Shown here: positions 31,760 through 62,838 of the stretch, piece by piece
Layout of the letters: each line of letters starts with the position of its first letter
Numbering within the stretch: the first letter of the stretch is position 1
NCBI GenBank assembly: GCA_038121585.1
Contig: JAYONY010000002.1
Span: 95,341-159,340, forward strand
Direction of reading: 5' to 3'
DNA: 64,000 nt
Source: an archaeon
GTDB taxonomy: Archaea; Nanobdellota; Nanobdellia; Pacearchaeales; GW2011-AR1
Notes under the pieces: model-generated
Database searches by the model: none
What the model was told of the DNA's origin: nothing
Seen by the model: the letters and a program-made list of their open reading frames with translations, nothing else
Program-made: the position numbers and the translations under genes

Positions 31760-32311
31760 ATGAAAAGACTTAGCCATAACCAAAAGCAACTTAGCAAAAT
31801 ATCTCACAGAATAAAGCGAAGAGCTGAAGTTGAAAATCTTATCATGGGGGCTTTGAAGAAAGAAGATGATTTGACTATAGCTCAGCTAGTAGAAAAAACA
31901 GGTTTGTCACGTGGCAATGCGAAGCACTATTTGAAGAACCTTATGAAACGTAAGTTTGTTATTGGAAAGCGCCAAAATGACATCCATGGAAGGCCTACAT
32001 TTCTTCGATTGAACAAAAAGGAAATTGAAAAGCGTCAAAAACAGAGTTTTAGGTCATTTGAAGATTTTGAAACTCACCATTTGAAATCTATTGTTACAAT
32101 GAAAATACTTGATGAGGTATCTAACCAGCAAGACCCCCAAGTGCAAACAAAAAAGATTTTACAACTATTTAAAAAATTTAGATTAGAAAGTTTTGGAGAA
32201 AAACTTACATTCCTAATGTATTCTGACTATATTAAGTTAAATTACGAATTTGAGCTCACTGAGAAAGGTAAAAAATATTTGAAGAAAACTAAACAGAAAT
32301 CTTCTGCTTAA
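31760..32311 (+). CDS. Winged-helix DNA-binding protein
   Basis: Trimmed to ATG 31760. LTIAQLVEKTGLSRGNAKHYLKNLMKRKFV. Confidence 0.5.
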   Translation: MKRLSHNQKQLSKISHRIKRRAEVENLIMGALKKEDDLTIAQLVEKTGLSRGNAKHYLKNLMKRKFVIGKRQNDIHGRPTFLRLNKKEIEKRQKQSFRSFEDFETHHLKSIVTMKILDEVSNQQDPQVQTKKILQLFKKFRLESFGEKLTFLMYSDYIKLNYEFELTEKGKKYLKKTKQKSSA

Positions 32312-33464
32312 TCAATTTCAAAATCTCTTTGTCTTTCAATAAAGCATTCATAATATCGTCTGCTTGTACACGTTCTAGCTCGTTTTTGATTTTCTTATTT
32401 GCTTCTTGCTCATTAAGTATCATACCGCACGTCTTACAGAATTTGTTTGTGACTTCGTTAACTGTCTTGCAACGAACGCATTTTTGAGGTAGGAGTTCTT
32501 GCTTCTTTTCTTCCTCTTGCACTTCTACACCGCTTAATTTTAGTATTGCATTATCAGTGTCTCGTCCTGATAAGTGAACGTATACGCCTGCCATTTTACT
32601 GGACTGCGTCCATCCTAGATAGTCTTTCATTTGTGCTTCTGTCAAGTGCTTAGCTAAGTACGTTGCGCGACTGTGACGGAATAGGTGCGGGTAGACTCGT
32701 TTCTTAATCCCAGCTTTTAAAGCACAGCTCTTGAGTATTGCAGCTATGCGAGTATACGTTAATGGTTCTCCATTGGGTTTTGTCCAAATATAACTATCAG
32801 GTATGCCGTTATTCTTATGACGATTAACCCATTCTTGCACGTACGGTGCTGATTGCACGATTCGAATTCTTCGAGCTCCTGTCTTGCCCGAAACGGTTAC
32901 TCGTGCTCCATGTTCGTCAAACGTGATGTCTTTCATACGCATTGAACCTATTTCTCCTATGCGGCAGCCAGACTCGTAGAGGATGGAAAGTAATGCACGG
33001 TCTCGTAGTGTATTGGCGGAGCCAATCATTAGTTTTACCTCTTCCTCACTCATGAGTTCATCAGGTAGTTTCTTGTGGTTGTTCTTTACGCCTGTCCTTA
33101 GCCATCGTATCTTCTCAGGGTACACGCCTTTTTCGTCAATGCCTTCGATGTAACGGTATAATTTCTTAATCATGACTTTGAATGTGTGTTTTGTGTGAGG
33201 GCTCCATTCTTTCTTTTCTATAGTGGCAACTGCAGCCTGTAAGTCCTCTTTTGTTGCGTCAGCGAGGTCGCAATTCATTATTTGAGCGAGTCTGAAAGCA
33301 TCATACAGGTATCGTTCTATTTTACAGATGCCTAGACCATCAGTGAAACAAAAGTTATGGAATGCTTCTAGTAAATCTTTATTCTTTTGAGAAATGTCTG
33401 ACTGTCGAACGTTGTTGAGTGTTCGGTCAAGTCGCTTTTTGTAGTTGTGAATGTCGAGTGCCAT
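32289..33464 (-). CDS. Tyrosine recombinase/integrase with C-terminal zinc ribbon
   Basis: ESGCRIGEI (Arg I), HLFRHSRATYLA (HxxR), GW..MAGVYVHL (Tyr), CVRC..x..CKTC. Confidence 0.85.
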   Translation of the reverse strand: MALDIHNYKKRLDRTLNNVRQSDISQKNKDLLEAFHNFCFTDGLGICKIERYLYDAFRLAQIMNCDLADATKEDLQAAVATIEKKEWSPHTKHTFKVMIKKLYRYIEGIDEKGVYPEKIRWLRTGVKNNHKKLPDELMSEEEVKLMIGSANTLRDRALLSILYESGCRIGEIGSMRMKDITFDEHGARVTVSGKTGARRIRIVQSAPYVQEWVNRHKNNGIPDSYIWTKPNGEPLTYTRIAAILKSCALKAGIKKRVYPHLFRHSRATYLAKHLTEAQMKDYLGWTQSSKMAGVYVHLSGRDTDNAILKLSGVEVQEEEKKQELLPQKCVRCKTVNEVTNKFCKTCGMILNEQEANKKIKNELERVQADDIMNALLKDKEILKLIKQKISV

Positions 33465-33604: not shown

Positions 33605-35539
33605 TTATAGTTTTGTTTTTCTGAGTAAGTTTGCGTTTGTTACAACAGTGATGCTTGATGCTGCCATGGCTATTTCTGCGATGATTGGGTGCAATACTCC
33701 TGCAATAGCTAACGGGATAGCAACTACATTATATGCGAATGCCCAGAAGAGGTTTTGTTTGATTTTACGAAATGTTCCTTTTGAGAGGTTTATTGCTTGA
33801 GGGATACTAATGAGGGATCCGTTTGCTGAGACAATATCTCCTGCTTCTATTGCAATGTCTGTTCCAGTACCCATTGCAATACCTACATTTGCTTGCTTAA
33901 GCGCTGGAGCGTCATTGACCCCATCACCAACAAACGCTACCATCCCTTTTTGTTGTAATTCCATTACTTTCTTTGATTTATCTTCAGGCAATACATTCGC
34001 AATAACCTCGTCAATACCAACTGATTTCGCAATTGCTTTCGCGGTTCGTTCATTGTCTCCTGTGAGTATGACTGTTTTGTATCCTTGTTTTTGTAAATAG
34101 GCGATGACTTTTTTCGCTTCTTCTTTTGGGCTGTCTGCAACTGCAATCGCTCCAATAGCTTTCTTCCCTTCAGCAATAATCATGGTGGTCTTACCTTCGT
34201 TTTCAAATTGCGTAACTGTTTCTTTTACTGATTTTGTGTTGATGTTTTTGTCTTGCATTAATCGTTCATTTCCAATAGTGTATGATAGTTTACCTATTGT
34301 TCCGATAACTCCCTTTCCTCTGATGATTGAAAATTTTGTTACTTTTTTTGGTGTTTTGAGCTTTGCATAGTTTACTATTGCTTTGCCAACTGGGTGTTCT
34401 GATAAGTTCTCTATTGAGGCTGCAATTTCAACCATTGCTTTCTCTTGTTTTTTAGTTACTGCGAATACGTCTGTCACGACAGGTTTTCCATGCGTGAGTG
34501 TTCCTGTTTTATCGAATACGATTGTTTTGATTTCTTTCATGGTTTGTATTGCTTCTCCTTTGCGAATGAGTATTCCTTTTTTCGCGCCCATGCCGCTTCC
34601 GACCATGAGTGCTATGGGGGTTGCAAGTCCTAATGAGCATGGACATGCTATAACAAGCACTGCTATAGCCACCCCTACAGAGCGACTGAGGTCTCCGGTA
34701 ATGAGTATCCAGGCAAGAAATGTAATTGCTGATAGGACTAGAATTATTGGGACGAACACACTCGTTATTTTGTCAGCTACTTTTTGGATGGGTACTTTGG
34801 TTCCTTGTGCTTCTTCAACTAGTTCGATAATATGTGCTAAGAAGGTGTCTTCTCCGACTTTTGTCGCTTTGACATATAATATTCCATCTTGATTGATTGT
34901 TGCTCCAATGACTGAACTCCCTTTCGTTTTATCAACGGGAATACTCTCACCGGTTACCATTGCTTCATCTACTGCACTATTTCCTTTTGTTACAATGCCG
35001 TCTGTGGGGATTTTTTCTCCTGGTTTTATTATCATTATGTCTCCTACTGTGAGTTCTGTAATTGCTATTTCAACTTCTTCTTTGCCACGTAGTACTCGTG
35101 CTTTTTTTGCGCCTAGTTCGAGTAGTTTCATGATTTCTTTTGATGCACGGCCTCGTGCTTTTGCTTCTACAAATTTGCCGGTGATAAAAATGGTCATTAT
35201 CATTGAGCTTACTCCTGAGTAATCTTGTGAGAGTTCAAAGTATGCGAAAAATCCTGTGAGGTATGCTATGACTGTGCCTAGGGCGATGAGGGAGTCCATG
35301 TTAAAGTAGAATGTAAAGAGTCCTCGAAAGCCCATTTTTACAGTGTTCCATCCTACGATGAAGATTATGGGGAATCCAAGTACTAGTAGCACAATTGGCA
35401 TCATGTTCATTGGGACAATATGCACTCCAAATAGCATGCCTGCATACATGATTATCATTATGGGGATAGTTAGAGCCCATGCTGCTATCATTTTGCGCTT
35501 CCACATGCGGCTTTCTAGTTCTTCAATGGAGTCGGGCAT
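33605..35539 (-). CDS. copA: Copper-translocating P1B-type ATPase (no fused HMA domain)
   Basis: TGES, CPC ([13 protein letters not shown]), DKTGTLT, GDGVNDAP. Confidence 0.9.
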   Translation of the reverse strand: MPDSIEELESRMWKRKMIAAWALTIPIMIIMYAGMLFGVHIVPMNMMPIVLLVLGFPIIFIVGWNTVKMGFRGLFTFYFNMDSLIALGTVIAYLTGFFAYFELSQDYSGVSSMIMTIFITGKFVEAKARGRASKEIMKLLELGAKKARVLRGKEEVEIAITELTVGDIMIIKPGEKIPTDGIVTKGNSAVDEAMVTGESIPVDKTKGSSVIGATINQDGILYVKATKVGEDTFLAHIIELVEEAQGTKVPIQKVADKITSVFVPIILVLSAITFLAWILITGDLSRSVGVAIAVLVIACPCSLGLATPIALMVGSGMGAKKGILIRKGEAIQTMKEIKTIVFDKTGTLTHGKPVVTDVFAVTKKQEKAMVEIAASIENLSEHPVGKAIVNYAKLKTPKKVTKFSIIRGKGVIGTIGKLSYTIGNERLMQDKNINTKSVKETVTQFENEGKTTMIIAEGKKAIGAIAVADSPKEEAKKVIAYLQKQGYKTVILTGDNERTAKAIAKSVGIDEVIANVLPEDKSKKVMELQQKGMVAFVGDGVNDAPALKQANVGIAMGTGTDIAIEAGDIVSANGSLISIPQAINLSKGTFRKIKQNLFWAFAYNVVAIPLAIAGVLHPIIAEIAMAASSITVVTNANLLRKTKL

Positions 35540-35745
35540 TATTCTACTACCTTGTAGCCTACTGCAGCAACTGCCTTTTTGAGATCTTCAAGTTTTACAT
35601 CATCTTCTACTTCAATGATTGCTTTGTGTGTCATGACACTGACGCTGACGCTGGTTACGCCAGGCACTTTTTTCAAACTCTTTTCAACGTTTCCCCCGCA
35701 CGCAGCGCAGTGCATGCCTGTAATAGCTAATTTTATTTTCTTCAT
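35539..35745 (-). CDS. copZ: Copper chaperone, HMA domain
   Basis: [15 protein letters not shown]. Its stop overlaps the copA start. Confidence 0.85.
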   Translation of the reverse strand: MKKIKLAITGMHCAACGGNVEKSLKKVPGVTSVSVSVMTHKAIIEVEDDVKLEDLKKAVAAVGYKVVE

Positions 35746-36236
35746 GGTTTCCCTCCTTTTTTCTTTTGTTTAGGAATTTCACAATGAATTTTTTTTGTAA
35801 GGTTGTAATAGCTAAATCCGAGTAGTGCAATGATTGCGAGTTGGATTTCAATACCTCCTAGGGGGAGTACTGCAAAACTAAACGTAATACCAAAAATGCC
35901 TAGGATAAGTGGGAGAATGCCTCCAACGCAGATTGGACAGACTCCCACCGCCATCCCTCCAACCGCACCAACGCTTGCAAGCACTGATGATTTCTTACTT
36001 CCCCGCCGAAGTTTAAATCCATGATAGATATAGCATCCGTTAATGCCAATAAGTGCTGCAATGATGAGCGAGAGAATAAGTGAGGTGATGAGTTTGAACC
36101 AATTAGTTGTTGCTGCGTATTGCATCGCAATTTCAAGACTAATCCAGAAGTCAGTAATGTACGACACGAACCCAAAGTACGCTATGAACAATACTATGAA
36201 AATATAGATGTACGGTTTTTGTAGGATAAGCTTCAT
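35742..36236 (-). CDS. Four-TM membrane protein with intramembrane CPxC motif
   Basis: GVCPICVGG; paralog 55943..56422 has GVCPVCVGG. Confidence 0.5.
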   Translation of the reverse strand: MKLILQKPYIYIFIVLFIAYFGFVSYITDFWISLEIAMQYAATTNWFKLITSLILSLIIAALIGINGCYIYHGFKLRRGSKKSSVLASVGAVGGMAVGVCPICVGGILPLILGIFGITFSFAVLPLGGIEIQLAIIALLGFSYYNLTKKIHCEIPKQKKKGGKP

Positions 36237-36457
36237 TGTTTCTCCTGTAGTTGCTTAACGAGCCATACAATAAATAAGACAAGTGCAATAATAACAAGCA
36301 CCATGAGTAAAGGGCCGAAAAAACCACCCATAAAGTACGAGCTTCCCATCATGCCGTAGCCCATCATGCCAAACCCTCCTCCGAATAGGAGAATCACGAG
36401 TAGAATTAGTCCTCCAATAATGAGTGCTTGTGAAGTATCCTCTTTTTTGCGTGCCAT
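36233..36457 (-). CDS. Small membrane protein with Gly/Met-rich segment
   Basis: GGGFGMMGYGMMGSSYFMGGFFGP lies between two helices. Confidence 0.5.
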   Translation of the reverse strand: MARKKEDTSQALIIGGLILLVILLFGGGFGMMGYGMMGSSYFMGGFFGPLLMVLVIIALVLFIVWLVKQLQEKQ

Positions 36458-36459
36458 GA

Positions 36460-36846
36460 TTACTTGACGATCAGTTTCCCTTGTCCCATGCCCATACTAC
36501 AAGCGAATACGTATGTTCCTGGTGTATCAGGCGTGAAGGTAAGTGCATCATTTGCAGTTGCTAAGTATTTATTGATACCTAAGCTTCGAATGGTAAAATC
36601 TCGAAAACAACCGAACACACTATCATCAAGTCGAATACTCACTGGTTTGCCAGCTTCAACCTCAACACTTTCTGGATAATAATTATAATCCTTATAACTC
36701 AAAACAACTTCTTGCGTTGTTCCGTCAGATGGTAGTGCGACAGCATTTCCAGATAGTGCTGGTGTATCTTTACCGCTCACTAAGAAAAATCCAGCTACTA
36801 CAATTACTGCGAAAATTGCAATTCCGTACTTTGTTGTTTTTTCCAT
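36460..36846 (-). CDS. Membrane-anchored cupredoxin-like domain protein (Cupredoxin_1-type)
   Basis: YNYYPESVEVEAGKPV and YVFACSMGMGQGKLIV. Paralog at 56576..56962. Confidence 0.65.
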   Translation of the reverse strand: MEKTTKYGIAIFAVIVVAGFFLVSGKDTPALSGNAVALPSDGTTQEVVLSYKDYNYYPESVEVEAGKPVSIRLDDSVFGCFRDFTIRSLGINKYLATANDALTFTPDTPGTYVFACSMGMGQGKLIVK

Positions 36847-36848
36847 TG

Positions 36849-37532
36849 TTACTGAAAGAGCAAACTGCGTGGCCCGTACACCATGAGCCAGGTTGTTGTA
36901 ATCGTGAGTATAAAGCTCAGGAATACTGTGAGAAACTGATCCTCCTTTTTAGTTCTTTGCTCTCCGCGTGTTTCTGTATAGAGCATGTAATTAAGACCTA
37001 CTAGAATTGCACCGCATATAAGGAACATAATTGCACCCGCTACTTTAAGCGGTTCATTAATCATCATAACAGCAGTCATTGCGCCCATGAGGCCTCCCAT
37101 AAAGCCTGCCATGAGTCCTTCCATAGCGCCCATAACCCCACAGCACTTACCGTTCCATACTCCTAAGAAAATACCTACGGTCATGCCATAGATGCCTCCG
37201 TAAAACATACCGTTTGTCGCACCAGTATAGAATCCTGCTAAAAAGCCTGCCATCATACCAATAGTCATGCCAATCATCATGCCAGTCATGCAGGGGAATT
37301 GTTTGAACGCACGCACTTGTCGCATTGAAGGCAGAATTAGTGCGTAACTCAGAGCTGCAAAGAATAACCAGAAACCGTAGCGTGGAAGGAAATCGGTAAC
37401 TGTTCTAAGTTTTACAATGTAGAGTATGCCAAGTGTTAGAAATGATGTAACGAGTGAAATGAAAATTGTCTTAATTAACTCTCCTTCAACGCCTTCGCCA
37501 TTCAAGGCTTTTGTAAATTCTTTGAAGCTCAT
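36849..37532 (-). CDS. Uncharacterised Met/Gly-rich polytopic membrane protein
   Basis: MTGMMIGMTIGMMAGFLAGFYTGATNGMFYGG, KCCGVMGAMEGLMAGFMGGLMGAMT. Paralog at 56987..57670. Confidence 0.55.
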   Translation of the reverse strand: MSFKEFTKALNGEGVEGELIKTIFISLVTSFLTLGILYIVKLRTVTDFLPRYGFWLFFAALSYALILPSMRQVRAFKQFPCMTGMMIGMTIGMMAGFLAGFYTGATNGMFYGGIYGMTVGIFLGVWNGKCCGVMGAMEGLMAGFMGGLMGAMTAVMMINEPLKVAGAIMFLICGAILVGLNYMLYTETRGEQRTKKEDQFLTVFLSFILTITTTWLMVYGPRSLLFQ

Positions 37533-37570
37533 GAGTGCATTAGTCTTCTTGATTTATTTAAGCGCTTGTG

Positions 37571-37584
37571 TGAAACTAGTTTCA
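37571..37584. promoter_or_regulatory. Perfect palindrome TGAAACTAGTTTCA between divergent TATA boxes (candidate operator, cassette A)
   Basis: Located 9 nt from TTAAATAAA (minus-strand operon) and 7 nt from TTTAAAC (regulator gene). Confidence 0.6.
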
Positions 37585-37591
37585 TAAGACA

Positions 37592-37598
37592 TTTAAAC
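37592..37598 (+). promoter_or_regulatory. TATA-like box (TTTAAAC), centred about 24 nt upstream of ATG 37619
   Basis: Position relative to the start codon. Confidence 0.4.
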
Positions 37599-37618
37599 TT
37601 GAGAACGTCAGTGTAGCA

Positions 37619-38110
37619 ATGGAAAACAAACAAGTAGGGTACTTGCTCTTAGGTATTACTGTTCTTCTAATATTTATCATCTACTTGTTTAATGCTGCAT
37701 TGCATGAAATAGTCAATGCTTCATGTTCAGAAGCAGGGCATGGTGACTCCTGTCCAATGTATAATACGATTAATCGACAAACGTATCTTTCCATAGGTAT
37801 TACTTCGCTAGTTGGGTTACTCGGATTATTTATGATTTTCACTAAGCCAGCTAAAGAAGTTATTGTTAAGACAAAAACTGTTACGAAACCTAAGAAGGTC
37901 TTTGATATTTCTGAACTTACAAAAGAAGAGTTACGGGTGTTTGAACTTGTTAAGGAGCAGAAAGCGGTTTTCCAAGCAGATCTTATTGAAAAAACAGGCT
38001 TTGGGAAGGCTAAAATGACTCGTATTATTGATCGTCTAGAGGGGAAGCGTATTGTAGAGCGAAAACGTCGCGGAATGACTAATATTGTAGTGCTGTTAGA
38101 AGAAGATTAA
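37619..38110 (+). CDS. Membrane-tethered winged-helix regulator with Cys/His/Met loop (candidate copper sensor)
   Basis: TM1, loop CSEAGHGDSCPM, TM2, then FQADLIEKTGFGKAKMTRIIDRLEGKRIVERKRRGMTNIVV (wHTH). Paralog at 62344..62838. Confidence 0.6.
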   Translation: MENKQVGYLLLGITVLLIFIIYLFNAALHEIVNASCSEAGHGDSCPMYNTINRQTYLSIGITSLVGLLGLFMIFTKPAKEVIVKTKTVTKPKKVFDISELTKEELRVFELVKEQKAVFQADLIEKTGFGKAKMTRIIDRLEGKRIVERKRRGMTNIVVLLEED

Positions 38111-53413: not shown

Positions 53414-55345
53414 TTAGATCTTTTTTCTTCTCAATAAATTAGCGTTGGTTACTACGGTGATGCTTGATGCTGCCATTGCAATTTCTGCGATTACTGGGTG
53501 TAGTAGTCCTGCTATTGCGAGTGGTATTGCGATTACGTTGTAGGCGAATGCCCAGAAGAGGTTTTGTTTTATTTTGCTGAATGTTGATCGTGAGAGGTTG
53601 ATTCCTTGTACTACTCCTTCTAGTGATCCTTTTGCGAGTACGATGTCTCCTGCTTCTATTGCTATGTCTGTTCCTGTTCCCATTGCTATGCCTACGTTTG
53701 CTTGTTTGAGTGCTGGTGCGTCATTGATTCCATCGCCTACGAATGCTACCATTCCTTCTTTTTGGAGTGCTTCGACTTTTTTTGCTTTGTCTTCTGGTAG
53801 TACGTTGGCGATTACTTCGTCTATTCCTACTTCTCGTGCTATTGCTTGTGCTGTGCGTTCGTTGTCTCCTGTGATCATGACTGTTGTGTAGCCTTCGTGT
53901 TTGAGACGTACTATTGCTTTTCTTGAGTCGTCTTTTACTGCGTCTGCGACTCCTATTACTCCGAGCACTTTGTTGTTTTCTGCTACTATCATTGTTGTCT
54001 TTCCATCGTTCTCTAGTTTTTCTAGGTGTGGTTTGATTTTTGTGAGTGGTATTTTCTTTTCTTTCATGAGGCGTGCGTTTCCGATGTACATTTGTTTTTT
54101 GTTGATTATTCCTTGTACTCCGCGTCCTCGTAGTATTTTGAATTTGGTTACTTTTTTGTAGTTTTTGATGTTTGCGTGTTCTACTATTGATTTGGCTATT
54201 GGGTGTTCGCTGAGTTTTTCTAGTGATGCTGCTTTTGCTATCATGTCTTGTTCTTTTGATTTTGTGAGTGCGTGGATGTTTGTGACTTCTGGCTTTCCTT
54301 TTGTTATAGTCCCTGTTTTGTCGAATACTACTGTTTTGACTTCTTTCATTGTTTGTATTGCTTCTCCTTTTCGTATGAGGATGCCTTTTTTTGCGCCGAT
54401 GCCTGAGCCTACCATAAGTGCTATTGGTGTTGCGAGTCCTAGGGAGCAGGGGCATGCTATGACGAGTACTGAGATTGCTACACCTACCGCGCGGCTGATG
54501 TCTTGTGTGAAGATCCACCAGTTGAAGAATGTGAGGAGTGCTACCATGAGGATTATTGGTACGAAGACGTTGGTGATTTTATCAGCTACTTTTTGTATTG
54601 GTACTTTTGTTCCTTGTGCTTCTTCGACGAGTTCTATGATGTGGGCTAGGAATGTGTCTCCGCCGACTTTTGTTGCTTTGATGTAGAGTATGCCGTCTTG
54701 GTTTATTGTTGCTCCGATGACGGTACTTTTTGGTTTTTTGTCTGTTGGTATGCTTTCGCCTGTGACCATGCTTTCATCTACTGAGCTATCTCCTTTTGTG
54801 ACTATTCCGTCTGTTGGGATTTTTTCTCCTGGTCGTACTACCATTATATCTCCAATTTTTACATCTTCTATTGGGACTTCGATTTCTTCTTTTCCTTGTA
54901 GTATTATTGCTTTTTTTGCTCCTAGTTCTAGTAGTTTTCGTATTTCTGAGCTTGCTCGTCCTTTGGCTTTTGATTCGATGTATTTTCCGGTGATGAATAT
55001 GGTCATGATCATTGCTGATACTCCTGAGTAGTCTTCAAAGCCATAGAATGAGAGTATTCCTGTAAAGTAGGCTATTACTGTTCCTAGTCCTATGAGGGAG
55101 TCCATATTGAAGTAGAATGTGTAGAATCCTCTGATGCCACTTCGTATTGTCTGCCAGCCAATTATGAATATTACGGGGAATCCAAGTATGAGTAGTGCTA
55201 TTGGCATTGTTCCCATCGGTATGATTGGCATACCAAACATCATTCCGGAGTACATGATTGCCATTATGGGGATGGTGAGTGACCATGCCCATATGAGCTT
55301 CCGCTTCCAACTTTTGATTTCTTTTTCTTCTATTGATTCTTCCAT
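53414..55345 (-). CDS. copA: Copper-translocating P1B-type ATPase, copy 2
   Basis: [32 protein letters not shown]. Collinear with 33605..35539. Confidence 0.9.
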
Positions 55346-55557
55346 TATTCTATTTTGACTACTTTGTATCCTGCTTTTGCGACTGCTGCTTTTAGGTCGT
55401 CTTCGCTTACTGAGTCTTCTGCTTCGATTATTCCTTTGTGTGTCATGACGCTTACGCGTACTTCTTTCACGCCGTCGACTTTTTTGAGGCTTTTTTCAGC
55501 GTTTCCTCCACATGCTGCGCAGTGCATTCCTTCTATGGTTATTTTTATTTTTTTCAT
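55345..55557 (-). CDS. copZ: Copper chaperone, HMA domain, copy 2
   Basis: Trimmed to ATG 55557 ([18 protein letters not shown]). ATGA overlap with the arsR-like stop. Confidence 0.85.
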
Positions 55558-55922
55558 TGCTTCCCTCCTTTTGATGATTGTATTATGTGGATGCAATGTG
55601 CGTTCATGTGGTCTTCGATTAGGTCCATTAGTGGTTTGATTGTTGTTTTATTGAGGGCGTAGTATCTGTATTTTCCTTTAACTTTTACGTGTACGAATCC
55701 GCATTTTTTTAGTCGTGCTAGGTCGTGTGATATTGCTGTTTGTTCTGCTTCTAGGTGTTTTGTGAGTTCTGTTACGTTCATCTCTTGTTTTCGTAGTGTA
55801 TTGATTATTTTGATTCTTGATTCTGATACGAGTGTTCCGAAGAATAGTTTGTAGGCGTCAAGTACTTCTGTTTCATCATGTCCTTTTGTGTGACATTTTT
55901 TTAATATGTTTTTATTTATCAT
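55554..55922 (-). CDS. ArsR/SmtB-family metalloregulator
   Basis: LVSESRIKIINTLRKQEMNVTELTKHLEAEQTAISHDLARLKKCGFV. Confidence 0.8.
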   Translation of the reverse strand: MINKNILKKCHTKGHDETEVLDAYKLFFGTLVSESRIKIINTLRKQEMNVTELTKHLEAEQTAISHDLARLKKCGFVHVKVKGKYRYYALNKTTIKPLMDLIEDHMNAHCIHIIQSSKGGKQ

Positions 55923-55942
55923 ATGATATTTTAAGTCATATG

Positions 55943-56422
55943 TTATTTAAGTTTTTGTGTGGTTTTAGGAAATAATTTTTTGTTCATCCACCAAATATTT
56001 GTTCCCAGTAATACGGCCATTAGTAGTTGTATTTCGACTCCATTCCAAGGTAGGACTGCGAATGAGAATGAAATTCCTAAAATGCTTAAAACTACTTGTA
56101 GCAAGCCGCCTACACATACGGGGCAGACTCCAACGAATAATCCTCCGACTGCACCTGCGCTTGCTACTGTGGCTCCTTTTTTACAGCTTTTGCGTAGTGC
56201 ATAGTGGTAATAGGCGTAGCTTAGGTTTATTGATACTAGGACAGCGATGATTATTGAGAGGACTAATGATGTTATGAGTTTAAACCAGCTTGTTGTTTGT
56301 GCATATTCTAGCGCTACAGAGAAGATTGTTATAAAGTCACTGAGCCATACAGCTAGAGAAAAATATACTATGAATCCCAGTATTGTTATATATTTGTAAG
56401 GTTTTTGTAGTAAGAATTTCAT
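55943..56422 (-). CDS. Four-TM membrane protein with intramembrane CPxC motif, copy 2
   Basis: GVCPVCVGG. Paralog of 35742..36236. Confidence 0.5.
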   Translation of the reverse strand: MKFLLQKPYKYITILGFIVYFSLAVWLSDFITIFSVALEYAQTTSWFKLITSLVLSIIIAVLVSINLSYAYYHYALRKSCKKGATVASAGAVGGLFVGVCPVCVGGLLQVVLSILGISFSFAVLPWNGVEIQLLMAVLLGTNIWWMNKKLFPKTTQKLK

Positions 56423-56575
56423 GTTACTTTATTAGTAGTGTTCCTCCCATGTCATGGTGTTTTGGACTGCATATTACGTTACAAAAGAATGGATTGTCCT
56501 CCTCTATCTACTATGGATGATGTTCTAGTAACAACTATCAAGAAGCCAATTCCTGCTTTTGTTGATGTTTTCATT

Positions 56576-56962
56576 TTATTGTACTATTAACTTCCCTGCT
56601 CCCATTCCCATGCTACATGCAAAGGTGTAGGTTCCTGGTTTATCAATAGTAAATTCTAGTACATCGTTTGGTGTTGCAAGGTATTTTTTGATATTGGTTC
56701 CTCTAACTACAAGGTCTCTAAAACATCCGTACACGCTATCGTCTAGTTGTAGTCGTACTGGTTTTCCAGCATCTACCGTAACTGTTTCTGGATAATAATT
56801 GTAGTCTTTCATGCCTATGGAGAGTTCTTGTGCATCGCCAGTTCCTACTGCTACTACATTACCTGACACTCCTTGGCCAGAGTCTCCTTTTACCATAAAT
56901 ACACCTCCTCCTACAATTAATAAGAAGATCGCAATACCATACAATGTTGATTTGCTAACCAT
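56576..56962 (-). CDS. Membrane-anchored cupredoxin-like protein, copy 2
   Basis: YNYYPETVTVDAGKPV and YTFACSMGMGAGKLIV. Confidence 0.65.
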   Translation of the reverse strand: MVSKSTLYGIAIFLLIVGGGVFMVKGDSGQGVSGNVVAVGTGDAQELSIGMKDYNYYPETVTVDAGKPVRLQLDDSVYGCFRDLVVRGTNIKKYLATPNDVLEFTIDKPGTYTFACSMGMGAGKLIVQ

Positions 56963-56986
56963 TATCTATGCCTCCTTTCAAGGTTT

Positions 56987-57670
56987 TCATTGGAATAGTG
57001 CGCTCCTTGGCCCGAATACCATGAGCCAGATCGTGAGGACTGTTAGTACAAAGCTTAGTACGAGTGTTAGGAATTGGTCTTCTGTATGTGTTCTTTCTTC
57101 GTTTTTGGTTTCTTTGTATAGCATGTAGTTGAGTCCTGCTAGTATTGCTCCGCATACGATGAATACAATTACTCCTGCTGCTTTTAGGTTATCATTATAC
57201 ATCATGACTGCGGTCATTGCTCCCATGAGCCCTCCCATGAATCCTGCCATTAGGCCTTCCATAACTCCCATGACGCCGCAGCATTTCCCTTTCCATATAC
57301 CTAAGAAAATGCCTACTGCCATACCGAAAACACCGCCCCAAAACATGCCGTTGGTCGCTCCCGTATAAAATCCTGCTAGGAATCCTGACATCATGCCTAC
57401 TGTCATTCCGATCATCATTCCGGTCATACATGGAAATGCTTTGTACGCGCGGACTTGCCGTATTGAGGGCATTACTAATGCGTAACTGAGTATTGCAAAA
57501 AATAAGAAGAATCCGTACTTTGGAATGAAGTTGTCGATGTATTGTAGTTTTAGGAAGTAAAACAAACCAAGTGTAATGAATGAAGTAAGTAGAGAGAGAA
57601 ATATCGTTTTTAGTAATTCGCCTTCAACACGAGTGCCTTGTAATTCTTTTAGAAATTCTTTTGTTGTCAT
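56987..57670 (-). CDS. Uncharacterised Met/Gly-rich polytopic membrane protein, copy 2
   Basis: Trimmed to ATG 57670 (MTTKEFLKEL), with ATGA overlap with the upstream gene. MTGMMIGMTVGMMSGFLAGFYTGATNGMFWGG, KCCGVMG. Confidence 0.55.
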   Translation of the reverse strand: MTTKEFLKELQGTRVEGELLKTIFLSLLTSFITLGLFYFLKLQYIDNFIPKYGFFLFFAILSYALVMPSIRQVRAYKAFPCMTGMMIGMTVGMMSGFLAGFYTGATNGMFWGGVFGMAVGIFLGIWKGKCCGVMGVMEGLMAGFMGGLMGAMTAVMMYNDNLKAAGVIVFIVCGAILAGLNYMLYKETKNEERTHTEDQFLTLVLSFVLTVLTIWLMVFGPRSALFQ

Positions 57671-57894
57671 CTTTTCTGTAGTTGTTTTTGTATTAGTATG
57701 AATAGGAGCACTATTATTAGTATTAAAACGATACTCATTAGGATCCCGTTGATTGACCCTCCCCACATGTGTCCATACCATTGGCCCATCATCCCATGGT
57801 GATCATAGAAATCCTCTCCTGAGTGTGCGGTGGTCAAACTTATTAGATAGGCAAATGCTGCAGTGATACTAAGACCTATTTTTTTAGTTTTCAT
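57667..57894 (-). CDS. Small secreted/anchored His/Met-rich protein
   Basis: Signal-like N-terminus, HSGEDFYDHHGMMGQWYGHMWGG, C-terminal TM. Confidence 0.5.
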   Translation of the reverse strand: MKTKKIGLSITAAFAYLISLTTAHSGEDFYDHHGMMGQWYGHMWGGSINGILMSIVLILIIVLLFILIQKQLQKR

Positions 57895-57931: not shown

Positions 57932-57945
57932 TGAAACTAGTTTCG
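57932..57945. promoter_or_regulatory. Operator-like palindrome TGAAACTAGTTTCG (one mismatch) upstream of cassette B
   Basis: Lies 9 nt upstream (minus orientation) of TTAAATAG. Embedded in a ~43-bp block repeated at 60830..60872. Confidence 0.55.
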
Positions 57946-58111: not shown

Positions 58112-58489
58112 TTACCGAAGTTGTTTTTTGCTTCTCCAATCAAGACAACTATACATTACAAGTGCTATAATCGGGAATTGCAGGTAGCTAAAGTCCCAGG
58201 TACCTGCAGTGATTCCTGTGAGTGTCATAGGTATAAGTGGCCAAAGTCCTGTGTAGAGACTCACCCACCATTTCCGATAAGTAAAAAGTGCTACTGCTGC
58301 TGCAATGTCCAGCGCACCTACTATTCTAACAAGCAGCTGTGATGCGGGGAATCCTGATTCTTGGATAAGCATTGTCATTCCTGGACTGCCGAGTAGTGCT
58401 GCCATTCCATGTACGAAGAAATTGTAGATGAGATATACTGCTGCTAGTGAGCCTAGTCCTTTTTTTGCAAGTTGTACGTAGTTGTTCAT
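58112..58489 (-). CDS. Four-TM membrane protein (paralog of 62848..63333)
   Basis: GLWPLIPMTLTGI aligns with GMWPLVPTTLTFI. Confidence 0.45.
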   Translation of the reverse strand: MNNYVQLAKKGLGSLAAVYLIYNFFVHGMAALLGSPGMTMLIQESGFPASQLLVRIVGALDIAAAVALFTYRKWWVSLYTGLWPLIPMTLTGITAGTWDFSYLQFPIIALVMYSCLDWRSKKQLR

Positions 58490-58971
58490 GGTAACACTAT
58501 GAGTTTTCCGTAATGGTTATGATGGCCTGGACCGCACATGACTGAACACCCATAGGTATATTCTCCTGGTGCTGGTGCCATGAATTCCCCAACTGTTGTT
58601 TTTCCGGGTTCTATGCGCATATTAAAGTTAAGTTGTGGTATTGCAATGCCGTGTGCTACATCTTTGCTTGTTGCTTTAATTCGTATGAGCTCTCCTGTTC
58701 TAACAGTAATTGTTGGTTCGCTCCAATCATATTGCCATGCTTCAAGGTTGATTTCTCGTGTGTTGCAATCTCCCATGTAGCCACCGCCCATGTAGTGACA
58801 TGGTGTGCCTGCCATTTCTCGCGCTGGGTCTGTTGGTAAGATTTGGCCGCTTAGGCCTTCAGCTTCGATTGCTAATGCATTGCCAGTAATACTCCCTGAC
58901 TGAGTTATGAACAAGCCAACAGCTACGATGACTACAAACATGCCTATGCCTATTTTAGTTGTTTTCTCCAT
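58486..58971 (-). CDS. Membrane-anchored cupredoxin with CuA-type ligand spacing
   Basis: DVAH-x34-CSVMCGPGHHNH gives H-x34-C-x3-C-x3-H-x2-H, counted directly. Also PCHYMGGGYMGDC. Confidence 0.6.
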   Translation of the reverse strand: MEKTTKIGIGMFVVIVAVGLFITQSGSITGNALAIEAEGLSGQILPTDPAREMAGTPCHYMGGGYMGDCNTREINLEAWQYDWSEPTITVRTGELIRIKATSKDVAHGIAIPQLNFNMRIEPGKTTVGEFMAPAPGEYTYGCSVMCGPGHHNHYGKLIVLP

Positions 58972-58984
58972 ATGCTTGCTCCTT

Positions 58985-60784
58985 TCATGCTACTGTAAAG
59001 CTTGTCATCATTCCGGCTTCGAGGTGTTCTGCTATATGGCAGTGCATCATCCACTCGCCTGGATTGGTGACGTCTACAAGTATGTCTACAGTTGAGCCTA
59101 TTGGTACGAGTACCGTATCCTTCCACACTTTATTATCGACAGGCTCCCCATCTATATGAGTTATAATAAATCTTTGTCCGTGTAGGTGTATGGGGTGTTG
59201 CATTGGGTGCATTGATTCGGGATCGTTGAAGAGGCGTATTTTTACAATGTCTCCGATGCTTGCGGTCATGCTGATGTCCATGTTTGTTGCTCCGCTTGCA
59301 GTGTCGAGTATTTCCCAAGTTACTTGGTCTCCTGGCGCGCGCATGTTCATCTCATCTTCCCACTCAATACGCTCTTCGTGTTCTTCTGCTTCTGCTTCGA
59401 GTGCTACTCTTTCTTCTTCTGTGCAATCGCCCATTACAATGCCTCCCATTTCATGGCAGGGTAATGTTGCCATTGCATCCATGAAGTCTGTAAGATCAAC
59501 GTTGAGATTAAGCTCATAATCGACTGCTTTATCGAAGTATGGTGCAAAGTCATTTATGTCTGCTCGGATTGTTGGGTTAGTTAGATCGTTGAAGAATTGT
59601 TCTGAGTAGTCATCTATCTCTGTTGTCTCTTCAACGGTGATTGTGCTCAACACGTATGACTTGTGAGGGTTCACGTTGAGCAGTGTGTAAGTGCCTGCAT
59701 CTGCAAAGTATACATCTACAATGTAGCGTTCTGCTGGTGCGATGATAAGTTCATCAATTAATGTTTCTGTTTCATATTGGCCGAGGTCTCCGCCGACTAG
59801 TTTCATCTGCGCTCCTGGAATGCTGAGTTTGTAGGGTCGCACATTAGCCACGTTTGTGATATAGTAACGAACCACTTCTCCTTCATTAGCTGTTTGGCGG
59901 TGATCTACATCTCCATTAACTAACATTACATTTCCGAATCTGCCCATGACTGCGAAATTTGCGTGTTCTCCTCCGAATGGTACGATACTTCCATCGTCAC
60001 CTAGGAGAAGGTCATCTAGCACAATAAGCTCTTCTCGATTGACTGGATTGTAAGCTTCAACTGGTATTACGAGCATGTTGCCTGCCATGCCTGCATCTTG
60101 TTGTATGTCTTCTCTGATGTGCGGGTGGTACCAGAAGATTCCATCATCGGGGAAGTATAGTTCGTATTCGAAGGTGTCTCCTGGTTGCATTGGCGGTTGG
60201 GAAACATCTGGCACTCCATCGTTTGCGAGGTCATGTCGTAGTCCGTGCCAATGTACTGTTGTTGGAAGGTCGATATTGTTAGTAAACACTACTTTAATTG
60301 TTGAGTCTTGTCGCACACGTAGTGCTGGTCCCGGAATCATGCCATTGTACCCGTACATGATAAGCTCTTCACCATTAATTTTCTTAGTGATAATGTCTGC
60401 TGTCATAGTGTATGTTTCGCCATCTGCAATGTCAACAATCGTACTACTTTGTACTGGTGTTAGTTCTGAAGCCGCGCGGCTTTGGCCTGGCAGGAAGTCT
60501 GCTCCAATGGTTGATTCAAATTGATTAGGTTGCTCTTCTAAGCGTTCAGCAAGTTTATTATAGGGCTCACATCCTTGCATTTCAGACATGTACAAGCAAT
60601 GTTCGTACATGAACTGCTCGTTTTGATCAAGCTCTGAAAGGCTTGTTACACTATCAAACTCGTCTGCGGGGAGGTTGAGTTCCGCGACCATTGAATGAGC
60701 ATCTCCTTCCTGAGAATCAAGGATATAACCCAGTGAGATTACAATTGCAAGTAGTGCTAATATGAAAATTCCTTTTTTATCCAT
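58985..60784 (-). CDS. Multicopper oxidase with acidic Cys/His/Met insert
   Basis: HWHGL, WYHPH, HPIHLHG, HCHIAEHLEAGMM. Insert with PCHEMGGIVMGDC. Confidence 0.85.
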   Translation of the reverse strand: MDKKGIFILALLAIVISLGYILDSQEGDAHSMVAELNLPADEFDSVTSLSELDQNEQFMYEHCLYMSEMQGCEPYNKLAERLEEQPNQFESTIGADFLPGQSRAASELTPVQSSTIVDIADGETYTMTADIITKKINGEELIMYGYNGMIPGPALRVRQDSTIKVVFTNNIDLPTTVHWHGLRHDLANDGVPDVSQPPMQPGDTFEYELYFPDDGIFWYHPHIREDIQQDAGMAGNMLVIPVEAYNPVNREELIVLDDLLLGDDGSIVPFGGEHANFAVMGRFGNVMLVNGDVDHRQTANEGEVVRYYITNVANVRPYKLSIPGAQMKLVGGDLGQYETETLIDELIIAPAERYIVDVYFADAGTYTLLNVNPHKSYVLSTITVEETTEIDDYSEQFFNDLTNPTIRADINDFAPYFDKAVDYELNLNVDLTDFMDAMATLPCHEMGGIVMGDCTEEERVALEAEAEEHEERIEWEDEMNMRAPGDQVTWEILDTASGATNMDISMTASIGDIVKIRLFNDPESMHPMQHPIHLHGQRFIITHIDGEPVDNKVWKDTVLVPIGSTVDILVDVTNPGEWMMHCHIAEHLEAGMMTSFTVA

Positions 60785-60849
60785 CGGTTTAGTTCTGTCT
60801 TTTTTAGGTATGTTTTTTTTATGATCAAAGAACTATTTAATTGCTTTTG

Positions 60850-60863
60850 TGAAACTAGTTTCG
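60850..60863. promoter_or_regulatory. Operator-like palindrome TGAAACTAGTTTCG overlapping the stop codon of the upstream oxidase gene
   Basis: The TAG stop of 60855..62246 lies inside the palindrome. A TATA-like TTAAATAG follows, then ATG 60784. Confidence 0.55.
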
Positions 60864-62246
60864 TTTAACAACTTCTACTATGCTTAACATTCCTGCTTCT
60901 GCATGTTCTAATATGTGACAGTGAAAAACCCATCTTCCAACGTCTTCTGCTATGAATGCGATGTCAACTTCTTCTCTGCTGTTTATCATTACTGTGTCTT
61001 TCCATCCTCTTGCTTTTTCAGGGATTCCATTTCGTGATAAGATTATGAATTTTTGTCCGTGTAGGTGCATTGGGTGTGGCTGGCCTTGTGTGTTTTTAAT
61101 TCTGAATTTGACGATTTTTCCTTCTTGGATTGTAAATGTTTCTGGATTTTCTGGAAATGCTTTGTTGTTGATTGTCCAACGTAGATTCATATGTCCTGCC
61201 ATTACTCCTATGAGGTCGGCTTGATAGTCAGGTTCTTTTTGTAGTAATGGTTCCATATCTAGTGTTTGTTCAAAAGTTTCTAATCCGTTGGTATCAATTT
61301 TTTCATCACTTGTGATAAGTGTGGCGATTTGAGTTGAACCTCTAGAAGTGTGATGGGTGAGTGTTATCGATTCTTGAGTGGTTTCTGGTAAGAGAATATC
61401 ATAGCGCTCTCCAGGGCTGATTGTTAGGAGGTTTGTCATATAGTGCTCTGAAGGTCCAATATCCATACCTACCACTGTGAATTGCTCTCCTCCAAATTGT
61501 AGGTTGAAGCTGCGTGCGTTTGCTGTGTTAACAATACGTAGGCGGTTATTTTCAAGCTGAATTGTGGGTTTTTCTTTTCCGTTTACAAGCAGTATGTTTC
61601 CGAATCGTCCGTGCATGACTCCTAGGTTAAAGCTTCTGAATTCGAAATCGTTTCCTAAGAGGGCATCATCAAGTACAAGTATGTTTCCTGGTGGTATTTG
61701 TGTGTTTTCTTCAATTAGTAGTACTCCTTGGAGTCCTGATTCGACTTGTTTGTGTGCATCAACGTGACTATGGTACCAATAAAGTCCAGGGTTTCTAAGT
61801 TCTAGTTCGTATGTAAATGACTCTCCTGGCAGTATTGGTTCTTGAGTCACTTCTGGTACGCCATCTTCAACGTTAGCAAGCTGCAAGCCATGCCAGTGAA
61901 CTGTTGTTGGTTCATCAAGGTTGTTGTGCACAATAACGTTCTGTGTAGTTCCTACTGCGCCTTTTATGAGGGGTCCGGGTATTTGTTGATTGTATGAGAA
62001 AACCGTTGTCTTCTTTCCTTCAATGAATTCATATCTTTCCTTTGAGATTGTAAGTTCAAAATCTCTTGGAGTGTTTTGGGCGCTATGTGAGGAGTAATCG
62101 GCGGCACGTACTGTTTCTTCATTTATGTTTACTTGAGTGCTTTCGCTATTCAAGAATATAAGGGTTAGGAGTAATGCAGTCACTGCTAATGCGAGCAATG
62201 TATTTCGGATAGTATTTTTTCGTATCGTAAAAATATTTCTTGTCAT
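60855..62246 (-). CDS. Multicopper oxidase (CueO/CopA-like)
   Basis: HWHGL, WYHSH, HPMHLHG, HCHILEHAEAGM. Confidence 0.85.
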   Translation of the reverse strand: MTRNIFTIRKNTIRNTLLALAVTALLLTLIFLNSESTQVNINEETVRAADYSSHSAQNTPRDFELTISKERYEFIEGKKTTVFSYNQQIPGPLIKGAVGTTQNVIVHNNLDEPTTVHWHGLQLANVEDGVPEVTQEPILPGESFTYELELRNPGLYWYHSHVDAHKQVESGLQGVLLIEENTQIPPGNILVLDDALLGNDFEFRSFNLGVMHGRFGNILLVNGKEKPTIQLENNRLRIVNTANARSFNLQFGGEQFTVVGMDIGPSEHYMTNLLTISPGERYDILLPETTQESITLTHHTSRGSTQIATLITSDEKIDTNGLETFEQTLDMEPLLQKEPDYQADLIGVMAGHMNLRWTINNKAFPENPETFTIQEGKIVKFRIKNTQGQPHPMHLHGQKFIILSRNGIPEKARGWKDTVMINSREEVDIAFIAEDVGRWVFHCHILEHAEAGMLSIVEVVKRN

Positions 62247-62283: not shown

Positions 62284-62297
62284 TGAAACTAGTTTCA
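62284..62297. promoter_or_regulatory. Perfect palindrome TGAAACTAGTTTCA in divergent promoter (oxidase / regulator)
   Basis: Lies between ATG 62246 (minus) and ATG 62344 (plus). Confidence 0.6.
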
Positions 62298-62343: not shown

Positions 62344-62838
62344 ATGGATAATAAGAAGACTGGCTATTTGTTGTTAGGGGTAGTAGTTTTGATTGTGATT
62401 ATAATTTATATGTTCAATAACGCATTACATGATATTGTTAATGCGAGCTGTAGTGAGGCTGGACATGGTGATAGTTGTCCAATGTATAATACTATTAATC
62501 AACAAACTAATCTTTCATTAGTTATTGCGGGGTTTGTTGTGGTTGTTGCTTTATTTCTTATTTTTTCAAAACCTCAAACCAAAACTGTTGTGGAAACTAA
62601 GATAGTTGAGAAAGAACCTATCAAGAAAGAATTTGATCTTTCTGATTTGAAGCAAGAGGAAAAGAAAGTGTTTGGACTAATTAGAAATAGCAAGGCAATT
62701 TTTCAGGCTGAGTTGATCGAAAAAACAAGTTTTGGTAAGGCAAAAATGACCCGTATTATTGATAGGTTGGAGGGTAAGGGTTTTGTAGAAAGAAAACGAC
62801 GTGGAATGACTAATGTGGTTGTTCTTCTAGAAAAATAA
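62344..62838 (+). CDS. Membrane-tethered winged-helix regulator, copy 2
   Basis: Identical loop CSEAGHGDSCPM (62449..62484). wHTH FQAELIEKTSFGKAKMTRIIDRLEGKGFVERKRRGMTNVVV. Confidence 0.6.
   Translation: MDNKKTGYLLLGVVVLIVIIIYMFNNALHDIVNASCSEAGHGDSCPMYNTINQQTNLSLVIAGFVVVVALFLIFSKPQTKTVVETKIVEKEPIKKEFDLSDLKQEEKKVFGLIRNSKAIFQAELIEKTSFGKAKMTRIIDRLEGKGFVERKRRGMTNVVVLLEK

Follow-up and report, generated by a model that had tools for sequence, protein, structure and literature searches.

The 64-kb window analysed here, the whole stretch from position 95,341 to 159,340 of contig JAYONY010000002.1 from an archaeon of the Pacearchaeales, encodes two paralogous membrane proteins that carry a winged helix-turn-helix (wHTH) domain and are each transcribed divergently from copper genes. 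We interpret them as membrane-integrated one-component transcription regulators of a copper-stress regulon, a reading in which we place rather better than even confidence and to which binding of DNA and of metal belong as predictions. The protein very probably represents a type of copper sensor-regulator that has not been described before. From its architecture, from a 14-bp palindrome that accompanies its gene and from the genes next to that palindrome, we infer that it binds DNA, that copper is its ligand, and how and in which direction it controls transcription.

The two paralogs, regulators 1 and 2, are identical at 110 of 164 positions (67%, E = 1e-70). Each consists of a first transmembrane (TM) helix, a loop with the 12-residue string CSEAGHGDSCPM, which is the same in both proteins (nt 37724..37759 and 62449..62484), a second TM helix, a Lys-rich linker of about 27 residues (75-101 in regulator 1) that is predicted to be cytoplasmic, and the C-terminal wHTH. 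An AlphaFold2 (AF2) model computed with 149 homologs (mean predicted local distance difference test score, pLDDT, 82.9) shows a helix at residues 3-39, a loop at 40-45, a second helix at 46-74 and the wHTH at 102-159. The N-terminal half is thus a TM hairpin plus a linker that is disordered in the model (pLDDT below 50 at residues 80-91) and poorly conserved in length among homologs; the wHTH core ends four residues before the C-terminus. This core passes the cutoff of Pfam DUF7343 (PF24034; 29.8 bits over residues 102-159 of regulator 1 and 31.0 bits for regulator 2, cutoff 27.6), which nearly all homologs carry as a precomputed annotation, and it is a borderline match to MarR (PF01047; 24.4 and 31.2 bits, respectively, cutoff 24.6). 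The NCBIfam scan gave only wHTH matches below threshold. Sequence-profile and Foldseek searches of the PDB aligned generic wHTH cores over 60-70 columns (E ≥ 3e-3) and returned no full-length analogue; the top MarR match of the profile search had an E-value of 3e-5. Among solved structures and curated families, none was found to cover the full architecture. Models for CsoR, CopY/BlaI, CueR/MerR and ArsR/SmtB gave no match at E ≤ 1 in Pfam and NCBIfam, and where Foldseek lists ArsR and BlaI/MecI structures (E about 2e-2), the similarity is confined to the generic wHTH fold.

Topology was deduced from hydropathy and the positive-inside rule. Exactly two hydrophobic segments are present in 349 of 355 family members. 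The mean number of Lys plus Arg residues is 1.65 in the N-terminus of about 8 residues and 1.43 in the loop region of about 33 residues, compared with 5.9 in the 20 residues that follow TM helix 2, and the loop region is net acidic (mean 3.3 acidic residues). Because of this charge bias the loop is predicted to lie outside and both termini, with the winged helix, inside, which also fits the need of the winged helix to reach DNA. Cysteines are concentrated in the loop, with a mean of 2.12 there against 0.10 in the rest of the protein, and C36 and C45 are invariant in the family alignment. A His lies within 4 residues of the Cys pair in 94% of members (density 0.058 versus 0.005 elsewhere, about 12-fold), the second loop Cys is followed by Pro in 84%, and 64% have a Met within 4 residues of the pair. 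Such a Cys2-His(-Met) set is what would be expected of a Cu(I) site, and we predict it to be the ligand site; CsoR, for example, uses a Cys2-His site for Cu(I) that is shared between subunits. The spacing of the two loop cysteines ranges from 3 to 16 residues across the family. In the AF2 model they sit at the ends of both helices, so the hairpin, rather than the length of the loop, may set their proximity.

An initial annotation of this DNA, made from the letters and reading frames, had described the two genes with their shared loop, two TM helices and C-terminal wHTH, and all of these are present where it placed them. Its outward-facing loop agrees with the segment counts and charge bias above, and its view that the protein is none of the named copper regulators is upheld by the Pfam and NCBIfam scans, in which no CsoR, CopY/BlaI, MerR, ArsR or TRASH match appeared. 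The profile and structure predictions it had called for gave the DUF7343 match and a hairpin-linker-wHTH model.

The DNA between the divergent genes carries the second part of the argument. A perfect palindrome, TGAAACTAGTTTCA, lies between regulator 1 and the copper operon that it faces; read from the sequence, its distance to the start codon is 38 nt for the membrane-protein gene (37532) and 34 nt for the regulator. For a second perfect copy the corresponding distances are 37 nt, to the 463-aa multicopper oxidase (ATG at 62246), and 46 nt, to regulator 2. Two copies with one mismatch, TGAAACTAGTTTCG, head further copper genes: one precedes a third operon by 37 nt (first ATG at 57894), and the other overlaps the 3' end of the 463-aa oxidase gene with the same promoter layout, which points to an internal promoter ahead of the 599-aa oxidase. 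With up to one mismatch allowed, these are the four occurrences in the window, all at copper promoters, compared with none in 100 dinucleotide shuffles. The initial annotation was right about the copy at 37571..37584 and about the divergence of both regulator genes from copper operons, which the Pfam-annotated genes bear out, whereas it had missed the other three copies, the third operon and a regulator of the ArsR type encoded there.

The geometry of the sites is that of a promoter. At all four, a TATA box (TTAAATA or TTAATAA, minus strand) is followed at 9 nt by the palindrome, and at three of them about 26 nt separate the centre of the TATA box from the start codon, from which leaderless transcripts are predicted. 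Across the family, 46 targets have the palindrome edge exactly 37 nt before the ATG, with the consensus TGAAACTAGTTTCA (-51 to -38), CAAAAG (-37 to -32), nnc, TTATATA (-28 to -22), 21 nt and ATG; the distance on the regulator side varies between 34 and 58 nt. The palindrome therefore abuts the CAAAAG of the target promoter, which resembles a TFB-recognition element (BRE), and is flanked by two core promoters that point away from each other. We considered whether it might act as an RNA hairpin or terminator and rejected this: the palindrome has no loop, its distance to the start is fixed at 37 nt with BRE and TATA in between, and it separates divergent gene pairs.

The same 14-mer is conserved far beyond the window. 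In 80 species loci that total 957,791 bp, exact matches number 58, where base composition would predict 0.012, and 67 of these loci have the 14-mer with up to one mismatch. It lies within 200 bp upstream of 44 of 93 regulator gene copies (39 perfect, 5 with one mismatch), and it adjoins homologs that are only about 30-35% identical, from an Aenigmarchaeota-labelled and a third subfamily (L087, L088, twice in L089, and L090-L092). In the reciprocal direction, metagenome contigs were scanned for the palindrome followed by CAAAAG, which gave at least 120 stretches; the test was scored on those of the matches listed that had at least 650 nt on the far side, 92 sites. Among these, a divergent family regulator starts within 150 nt at 57; 5 have a regulator in the same direction just upstream, 18 have one elsewhere on the stretch and 12 have none, so that a family member shares the stretch at 80 of the 92 sites. 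The membrane winged-helix gene is the only gene that accompanies the palindrome across all three subfamilies. We therefore predict that the palindrome is the operator of the membrane winged-helix protein. Conservation within the protein is in keeping with this prediction: in 149 sequences with a mean identity of 32%, the positions conserved at 90% or more comprise both loop cysteines and the DNA-reading surface of the wHTH (K130, R135, D138, L140, E141, E147, R148, R150, R151, G152, M153 and N155), and a near-invariant recognition helix and wing match an invariant operator. Extra half-sites were seen on the regulator side in L012, L045 and L054. In one of the distant subfamilies, named here C-x13-CPxH after its loop, a further GTTTCA half-site occurs 18 nt downstream of the palindrome, past a TATA-like box (L090 at about 2649, L091 at about 6750 and L092 at about 6959).

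The probable regulon was derived from the first open reading frame (ORF) on each side of every palindrome. The regulator itself is first in 47 cases and the Met/Cys-rich membrane protein in 46, usually followed by cupredoxin, HMA and CopA. Rarer first genes encode a CEYCCG protein (14), cupredoxin (5), DsbB (3) and HMA (2), and to these are added the two multicopper oxidases of the window, GMMGY Met-rich peptides, a rhodanese and a Cys-rich peptide. Searches with the window's copper proteins (tblastn) gave a concordant picture in 86 related loci, of which 60 carry the Met/Cys-rich membrane protein and cupredoxin, 45 HMA and 38 CopA. The commonest layout is a divergent regulator, a gap of about 86-100 bp, and then membrane protein, cupredoxin, in some cases another membrane protein, HMA and CopA; the Pfam annotation of genes around the regulator agrees with this and adds DUF411, SHOCT and DUF302. 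In loci labelled Aenigmarchaeota, the regulator directly follows YHS/TRASH/HMA-CopA operons or lies among DSBA, DsbD_TM, Redoxin and rhodanese genes, and in the third subfamily it adjoins HMA-CopA, DUF411 and cupredoxin. The expectation that homologs elsewhere would also keep company with metal genes thus holds, both in the 86 loci and in the two distant subfamilies. At three sites labelled Aenigmarchaeota (L087 at 7160, L089 at 1618 and 6554), the palindrome precedes operons of DSBA, DsbD_TM, Redoxin/AhpC and rhodanese genes, not copper pumps, and there the regulon would extend to extracytoplasmic thiol-disulfide maintenance. The CEYCCG protein, the second commonest operator-proximal gene product, is a signal-anchored protein of about 220-235 aa with CEYCCG and CGCAHS motifs, a C-terminal GGC and no Pfam match. 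Its gene heads a DUF411-containing operon and was located in L003 (5259..5960), L007, L008 and L090 (2708..3370), and in 32 metagenome loci.

The family is large. At least 831 homologs were found in a set of 5.8 billion proteins, and an exhaustive HMMER search of 1.84 billion cluster representatives matched 754 clusters at E ≤ 1e-3, of which 320 also passed E ≤ 1e-10; almost all of these matches span the full length of 150-175 aa. Named homologs are labelled "MarR family transcriptional regulator" or "uncharacterized membrane protein", and where the source carries a label, it is Woesearchaeota, Pacearchaeota or Nanoarchaeota. At least 579 species-representative genomes contain a relative, and almost all of these genomes are labelled as DPANN. 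The two distant subfamilies, with identities of about 30-35%, are the Aenigmarchaeota-labelled one and the C-x13-CPxH group, whose labelled members are Woesearchaeota and Nanoarchaeia. No relatives were found in the viral contigs searched, for which reason we rejected the idea of a mobile or viral regulator. Two loci with a typical regulator/cop divergon are labelled 'Patescibacteria group bacterium' (L011) and 'uncultured Methanosarcinales' (L021); given their gene content, these are probably mis-binned DPANN contigs.

Taken together, these observations suggest the following mechanism. The two TM helices would form a hairpin with both termini in the cytoplasm and with two Cys and a His (here also Cys-Pro-Met) exposed outside at its tip, and the flexible Lys-rich linker would tether a minimal MarR-like winged helix inside. 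Two winged helices of a dimer would read the two TGAAAC half-sites of the operator. Since the dimerisation helices of MarR are lacking, the TM hairpin would have to provide dimerisation. The Cys2-His(-Met) sites would bind Cu(I) from outside the cytoplasm, and this would probably bridge or re-pack two hairpins; the signal would be a change in hairpin dimerisation and, through it, in cooperative operator binding. A linker that is long, disordered and poorly conserved in length should be a poor conductor of subtle conformational change, which makes altered dimerisation the simplest signal; copper would then promote operator occupancy and thus activation. Control would be exerted where TFB and TATA-binding protein (TBP) are recruited, and autoregulation is implied by the palindrome lying upstream of the regulator's own promoter as well, in the common divergent layout. 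In its full form the proposal is that proteins of about 160 residues, a family found across DPANN-labelled lineages, both sense copper and respond to it, Cu(I) at the Cys2-His hairpin tip switching the dimerisation of a tethered wHTH on one invariant 14-bp operator that abuts the BRE of leaderless cop promoters; in this form we hold it tentatively, with a little less than even confidence.

Several points weigh against this proposal. The topology follows from hydropathy and the positive-inside rule and not from a dedicated predictor or an experiment; the AF2 model is of a monomer, and dimerisation is deduced from the palindrome alone; and all sequences come from metagenome-assembled genomes. 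A Cys spacing that varies from 3 to 16 residues is odd for a rigid chelate and would equally fit a disulfide switch. An ArsR-type gene, present in 27 of the 80 species loci and in the third operon of the window, suggests that a second regulator may act on the same genes. As to sign, the near-consensus BRE and TATA of the targets are more in keeping with a repressor than with an activator, and the half-site past the TATA-like box in the third subfamily likewise hints at repression. Between copper-dependent activation and copper-relieved repression of the cop promoters, we lean only slightly towards activation.

The variable spacing is the natural starting point for a thiol-oxidation switch, in which the outward Cys pair would form an intra- or intermolecular disulfide, through copper catalysis or under general stress, and would thereby set the dimer state, with copper sensed indirectly. 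E. coli MarR, in which Cu(II) drives oxidation of Cys80, responds to copper through cysteine oxidation, and an oxidised MarR (4jba) is among the Foldseek fold matches of our model. DsbB and rhodanese are among the regulon genes, and in L087 and L089 the palindrome precedes operons of DSBA, DsbD_TM, Redoxin/AhpC and glutaredoxin genes, one of which has no copper pump nearby. Such targets do not argue against copper, however, given that Dsb-like Scs proteins belong to known bacterial copper responses. A further precedent is the periplasmic disulfide of CadC (PMC3096576). A plain disulfide switch, on the other hand, needs none of the His, Cys-Pro and Met residues kept beside the pair, and the genes most often targeted are specific to copper (CopA, HMA, cupredoxin, multicopper oxidases and DUF411). 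We consider a thiol-oxidation switch unlikely, while giving it a real share of our expectation.

Alternatively, the regulator might be anchored without sensing through its loop, the Cys pair being a structural disulfide and control coming from a partner, from proteolytic release of the wHTH or from the amount of protein through autoregulation. The Met/Cys-rich membrane protein, as the commonest first gene after the operator and at a fixed distance in 46 loci, could be a copper-binding partner of this kind, and the long disordered linker at residues 75-101 would be an accessible protease site. Yet in many loci with regulator and palindrome that membrane protein is not encoded in the vicinity (for instance L007, L008, L027, L045 and L087-L092), no consistently linked protease gene was found in the neighbourhoods examined, and the loop is the best-conserved extracytoplasmic feature and carries metal-ligand residues. 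This makes a loop without a sensing role improbable.

Finally, the palindrome could be the operator of another regulator, either the ArsR-type protein of the third operon or a PadR or HxlR protein, with the membrane protein a regulon member in a different role, such as tethering DNA or acting on other sites. The ArsR-type gene does lie inside the third operon; a regulator paralog is co-transcribed directly downstream of an ArsR-type gene in L062, L069 and L081; and PadR or HxlR genes lie near the regulators of L087, L088, L090 and L091. We give this very little credence, because an ArsR-like gene is absent within about 8 kb in 47 of the 67 palindrome-bearing species loci, seven loci have an ArsR-type gene and no palindrome, so that the two are separable, the membrane wHTH gene alone travels with the palindrome in all three subfamilies, and its DNA-reading residues are nearly as invariant as the palindrome itself. 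More plausibly, the ArsR-type protein supplies a second, cytoplasmic metal input, and the arrangement suggests that the genes are under two controls, the other of which would relay a signal from outside through the membrane regulator.

Features of the window discussed in the text, with coordinates, strand and basis of assignment
Feature	Position	Strand	Basis or remark
Regulator paralog 1, 163 aa	37619..38110	+	ORF; DUF7343 match; AF2 model; at least 831 homologs
TM helix 1, about residues 7-28	37637..37702	+	Hydropathy peak 2.5; AF2 helix 3-39, pLDDT 93-97
Loop motif CSEAGHGDSCPM, residues 36-47, predicted extracytoplasmic Cys2-His(-Met) site	37724..37759	+	Conserved C36/C45
TM helix 2, about residues 55-74	37781..37840	+	Hydropathy, AF2, charge bias
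wHTH, residues 102-159; recognition helix KAKMTRIIDRLEG, wing ERKRRGMTN	37922..38095	+	Pfam, AF2, Foldseek
Regulator paralog 2, 164 aa	62344..62838	+	ORF; Pfam scan; alignment to paralog 1
Operator 1 (candidate), perfect TGAAACTAGTTTCA	37571..37584	.	Between divergent promoters of regulator and cop operon 1
Operator 2 (candidate), perfect palindrome	62284..62297	.	Upstream of paralog 2
Operator 3 (candidate), TGAAACTAGTTTCG, one mismatch	57932..57945	.	Heads cop operon 3
Operator 4 (candidate), TGAAACTAGTTTCG, one mismatch	60850..60863	.	Ahead of 599-aa oxidase
TATA box of cop operon 1, TTAAATA	37555..37561	-	Sequence, family consensus; 9 nt from operator, about 26 nt from ATG
TATA-like box of regulator promoter, ATTTAAA (position inferred)	37591..37597	+	Sequence; about 25 nt before ATG
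Cop operon 1	33605..37532	-	ORF calls, Pfam
Operon 1: Met/Cys-rich membrane protein, 227 aa	36849..37532	-	
Operon 1: Cupredoxin_1	36460..36846	-	
Operon 1: 74-aa GMMGY peptide	36233..36457	-	
Operon 1: 164-aa membrane protein	35742..36236	-	
Operon 1: HMA chaperone	35539..35745	-	
Operon 1: CopA P-type ATPase	33605..35539	-	
Operon 2, facing regulator 2	58112..62246	-	ORF calls, Pfam
Operon 2: multicopper oxidase, 463 aa	60855..62246	-	
Operon 2: multicopper oxidase, 599 aa	58985..60784	-	
Operon 2: cupredoxin/COX2-like	58486..58971	-	
Operon 2: DoxX-like	58112..58489	-	
Cop operon 3 (absent from the initial annotation)	53414..57894	-	Palindrome scan, Pfam, alignments
Operon 3: 75-aa His/Met-rich peptide, first gene	57667..57894	-	
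Operon 3: Met/Cys-rich membrane protein, second copy	56987..57670	-	
Operon 3: cupredoxin	56576..56962	-	
Operon 3: 159-aa membrane protein	55943..56422	-	
Operon 3: ArsR-type regulator (ArsR/HTH_5)	55554..55922	-	
Operon 3: HMA	55345..55596	-	
Operon 3: CopA, second copy	53414..55345	-	

Regulators 1 and 2 each face copper genes; cop operon 3 has no adjoining membrane-regulator gene. Compared with their counterparts in operon 1, CopA and the Met/Cys-rich membrane protein of this operon have identities of 72% and 74%, and the window thus holds a copper island of three loci. The CopA sequences have the CPC, YN and MxxSS motifs, which we take to mark Cu+/Ag+ pumps of the P1B-1 class. The 227-aa Met/Cys-rich membrane protein is polytopic, has the motifs FPCMTGMM and GKCCGVMG and gives no Pfam match; it is likely to be a copper-handling protein of an uncharacterised kind, or it may be the regulator's partner. 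The ArsR/HTH_5 protein of operon 3 has a C-terminal H-x3-H-C-I-H motif. Membrane-anchored peptides of 42-82 aa with GMMGY or His/Met-rich external segments are repeatedly the first or early genes after the operator; such peptides also occur in L011, L033, L061 and L083, and none of the peptides, those of the window included, has a significant Pfam match. A gene for a tyrosine recombinase with a C-terminal zinc ribbon (32289..33464, Phage_integrase, E = 3e-23) adjoins the CopA gene of operon 1. The island may have been acquired by integration; a tRNA scan of the window found no tRNA gene, and hence no obvious integration site beside the integrase.

If the proposal is true, the family would provide the first metal-responsive membrane-integrated transcription factor and the first extracytoplasmic metal sensor described in archaea, with an operator that has stayed unchanged among homologs only about 30% identical. 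To our knowledge, copper sensors are either soluble cytoplasmic proteins (CueR, CsoR, CopY and the archaeal CopR) or two-component systems, and a protein of 160 residues that takes its copper signal from outside and works on DNA within the cell would solve the problem differently and with minimal means. Such a minimal sensor may suit very small cells, in which the chromosome is always near the membrane. Gene regulation in DPANN archaea is, as far as we know, essentially unstudied, almost none of them having been cultured, and a unit of regulator, operator, promoter geometry and regulon that is conserved in hundreds of species offers a testable system. Its small size also makes the protein attractive for studies of transmembrane signalling through a hairpin and as a compact biosensor part. 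In addition, the palindrome flags uncharacterised families, namely the 227-aa Met/Cys-rich membrane protein, the CEYCCG protein and the GMMGY peptides, as candidates for copper handling.

A search of the literature library at hand for the family, the Pfam name DUF7343, COG2512, the operator and DPANN copper regulators found no description of this system. The regulator has the layout of a membrane-integrated one-component regulator, with DNA-binding domain and anchor in one polypeptide and the wHTH predicted to be cytoplasmic. In this it resembles ToxR, CadC and TcpP of bacteria, in that a membrane-held factor, predicted to bind DNA directly, would respond to an extracytoplasmic signal without a kinase. 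In ToxR and CadC, dimerisation has been proposed to drive DNA binding, as we suggest here, and external cysteines matter in CadC, which has a periplasmic disulfide (PMC3096576). The bacterial proteins, however, have an N-terminal OmpR-type wHTH, one TM helix and a large folded periplasmic domain, whereas here a TM hairpin comes first, the MarR-like wHTH is C-terminal, and all that is predicted to lie outside is the tip of the hairpin, a loop of about 10 residues, without any folded external domain. No Trans_reg_C match was found in the regulator at E ≤ 1 (Pfam), and its host is an archaeon, hence its promoters are of the TBP/TFB type.

Among archaea, ArnR and ArnR1 of Sulfolobus acidocaldarius are HTH regulators with two TM anchors and promoter-proximal boxes (PMC6396743), and anchoring of an HTH regulator by two TM helices is common to both systems. 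ArnR differs in having an N-terminal HTH, a cytoplasmic HAMP-like and sensor domain and its TM helices at the C-terminus; it responds to starvation, acts on archaellum and pilus genes, and is confined to the Sulfolobales. Pfam and NCBIfam scans detected no sequence relationship between the two. In gene arrangement the closest parallel is CopR/CopT of Thermococcales and Sulfolobales, with a gene divergent from copA, a (semi-)palindrome abutting the BRE, a copper regulon and, for CopR, autoregulation (PMC7830388). In P. furiosus, the semi-palindrome lies directly upstream of the BRE, between the divergent copR and copA promoters, and CopR activates copA, while the near-identical T. onnurineus system is reported to be repressive (PMC7830388). 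CopR, whose motif is TTNNCAWWWTGNNAA, is, however, a soluble protein in which a C-terminal TRASH (plus His-rich) domain detects copper in the cytoplasm, whereas the regulator described here is embedded in the membrane with its predicted ligand site facing outward. Pfam gave no TRASH or YHS match in the regulator, and TrmB reached 16.2 bits in paralog 2 against a cutoff of 25.6.

The wHTH core is related to MarR by a weak sequence match and by fold, MarR, BpsR, OhrR and MexR ranking highest in Foldseek with alignments of about 60-70 columns. Canonical members of the MarR family are soluble, have about 140-150 residues and form dimers, and their N- and C-terminal helices make up the dimer interface and ligand pocket; here only a wHTH core of about 58 residues is present. 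On the side of the signal, CusS/CopS sense extracytoplasmic copper by His/Met ligands at a dimer interface, and the ligand sets of these proteins and of CsoR resemble the conserved Cys2-His(-Met) residues of the loop. Unlike CusS/CopS, the regulator has no kinase and response regulator, and sensing and DNA binding are predicted to reside in one polypeptide of about 160 residues. Among membrane-integrated one-component regulators, its architecture, its predicted class of signal and the domain of life of its host would all be new.

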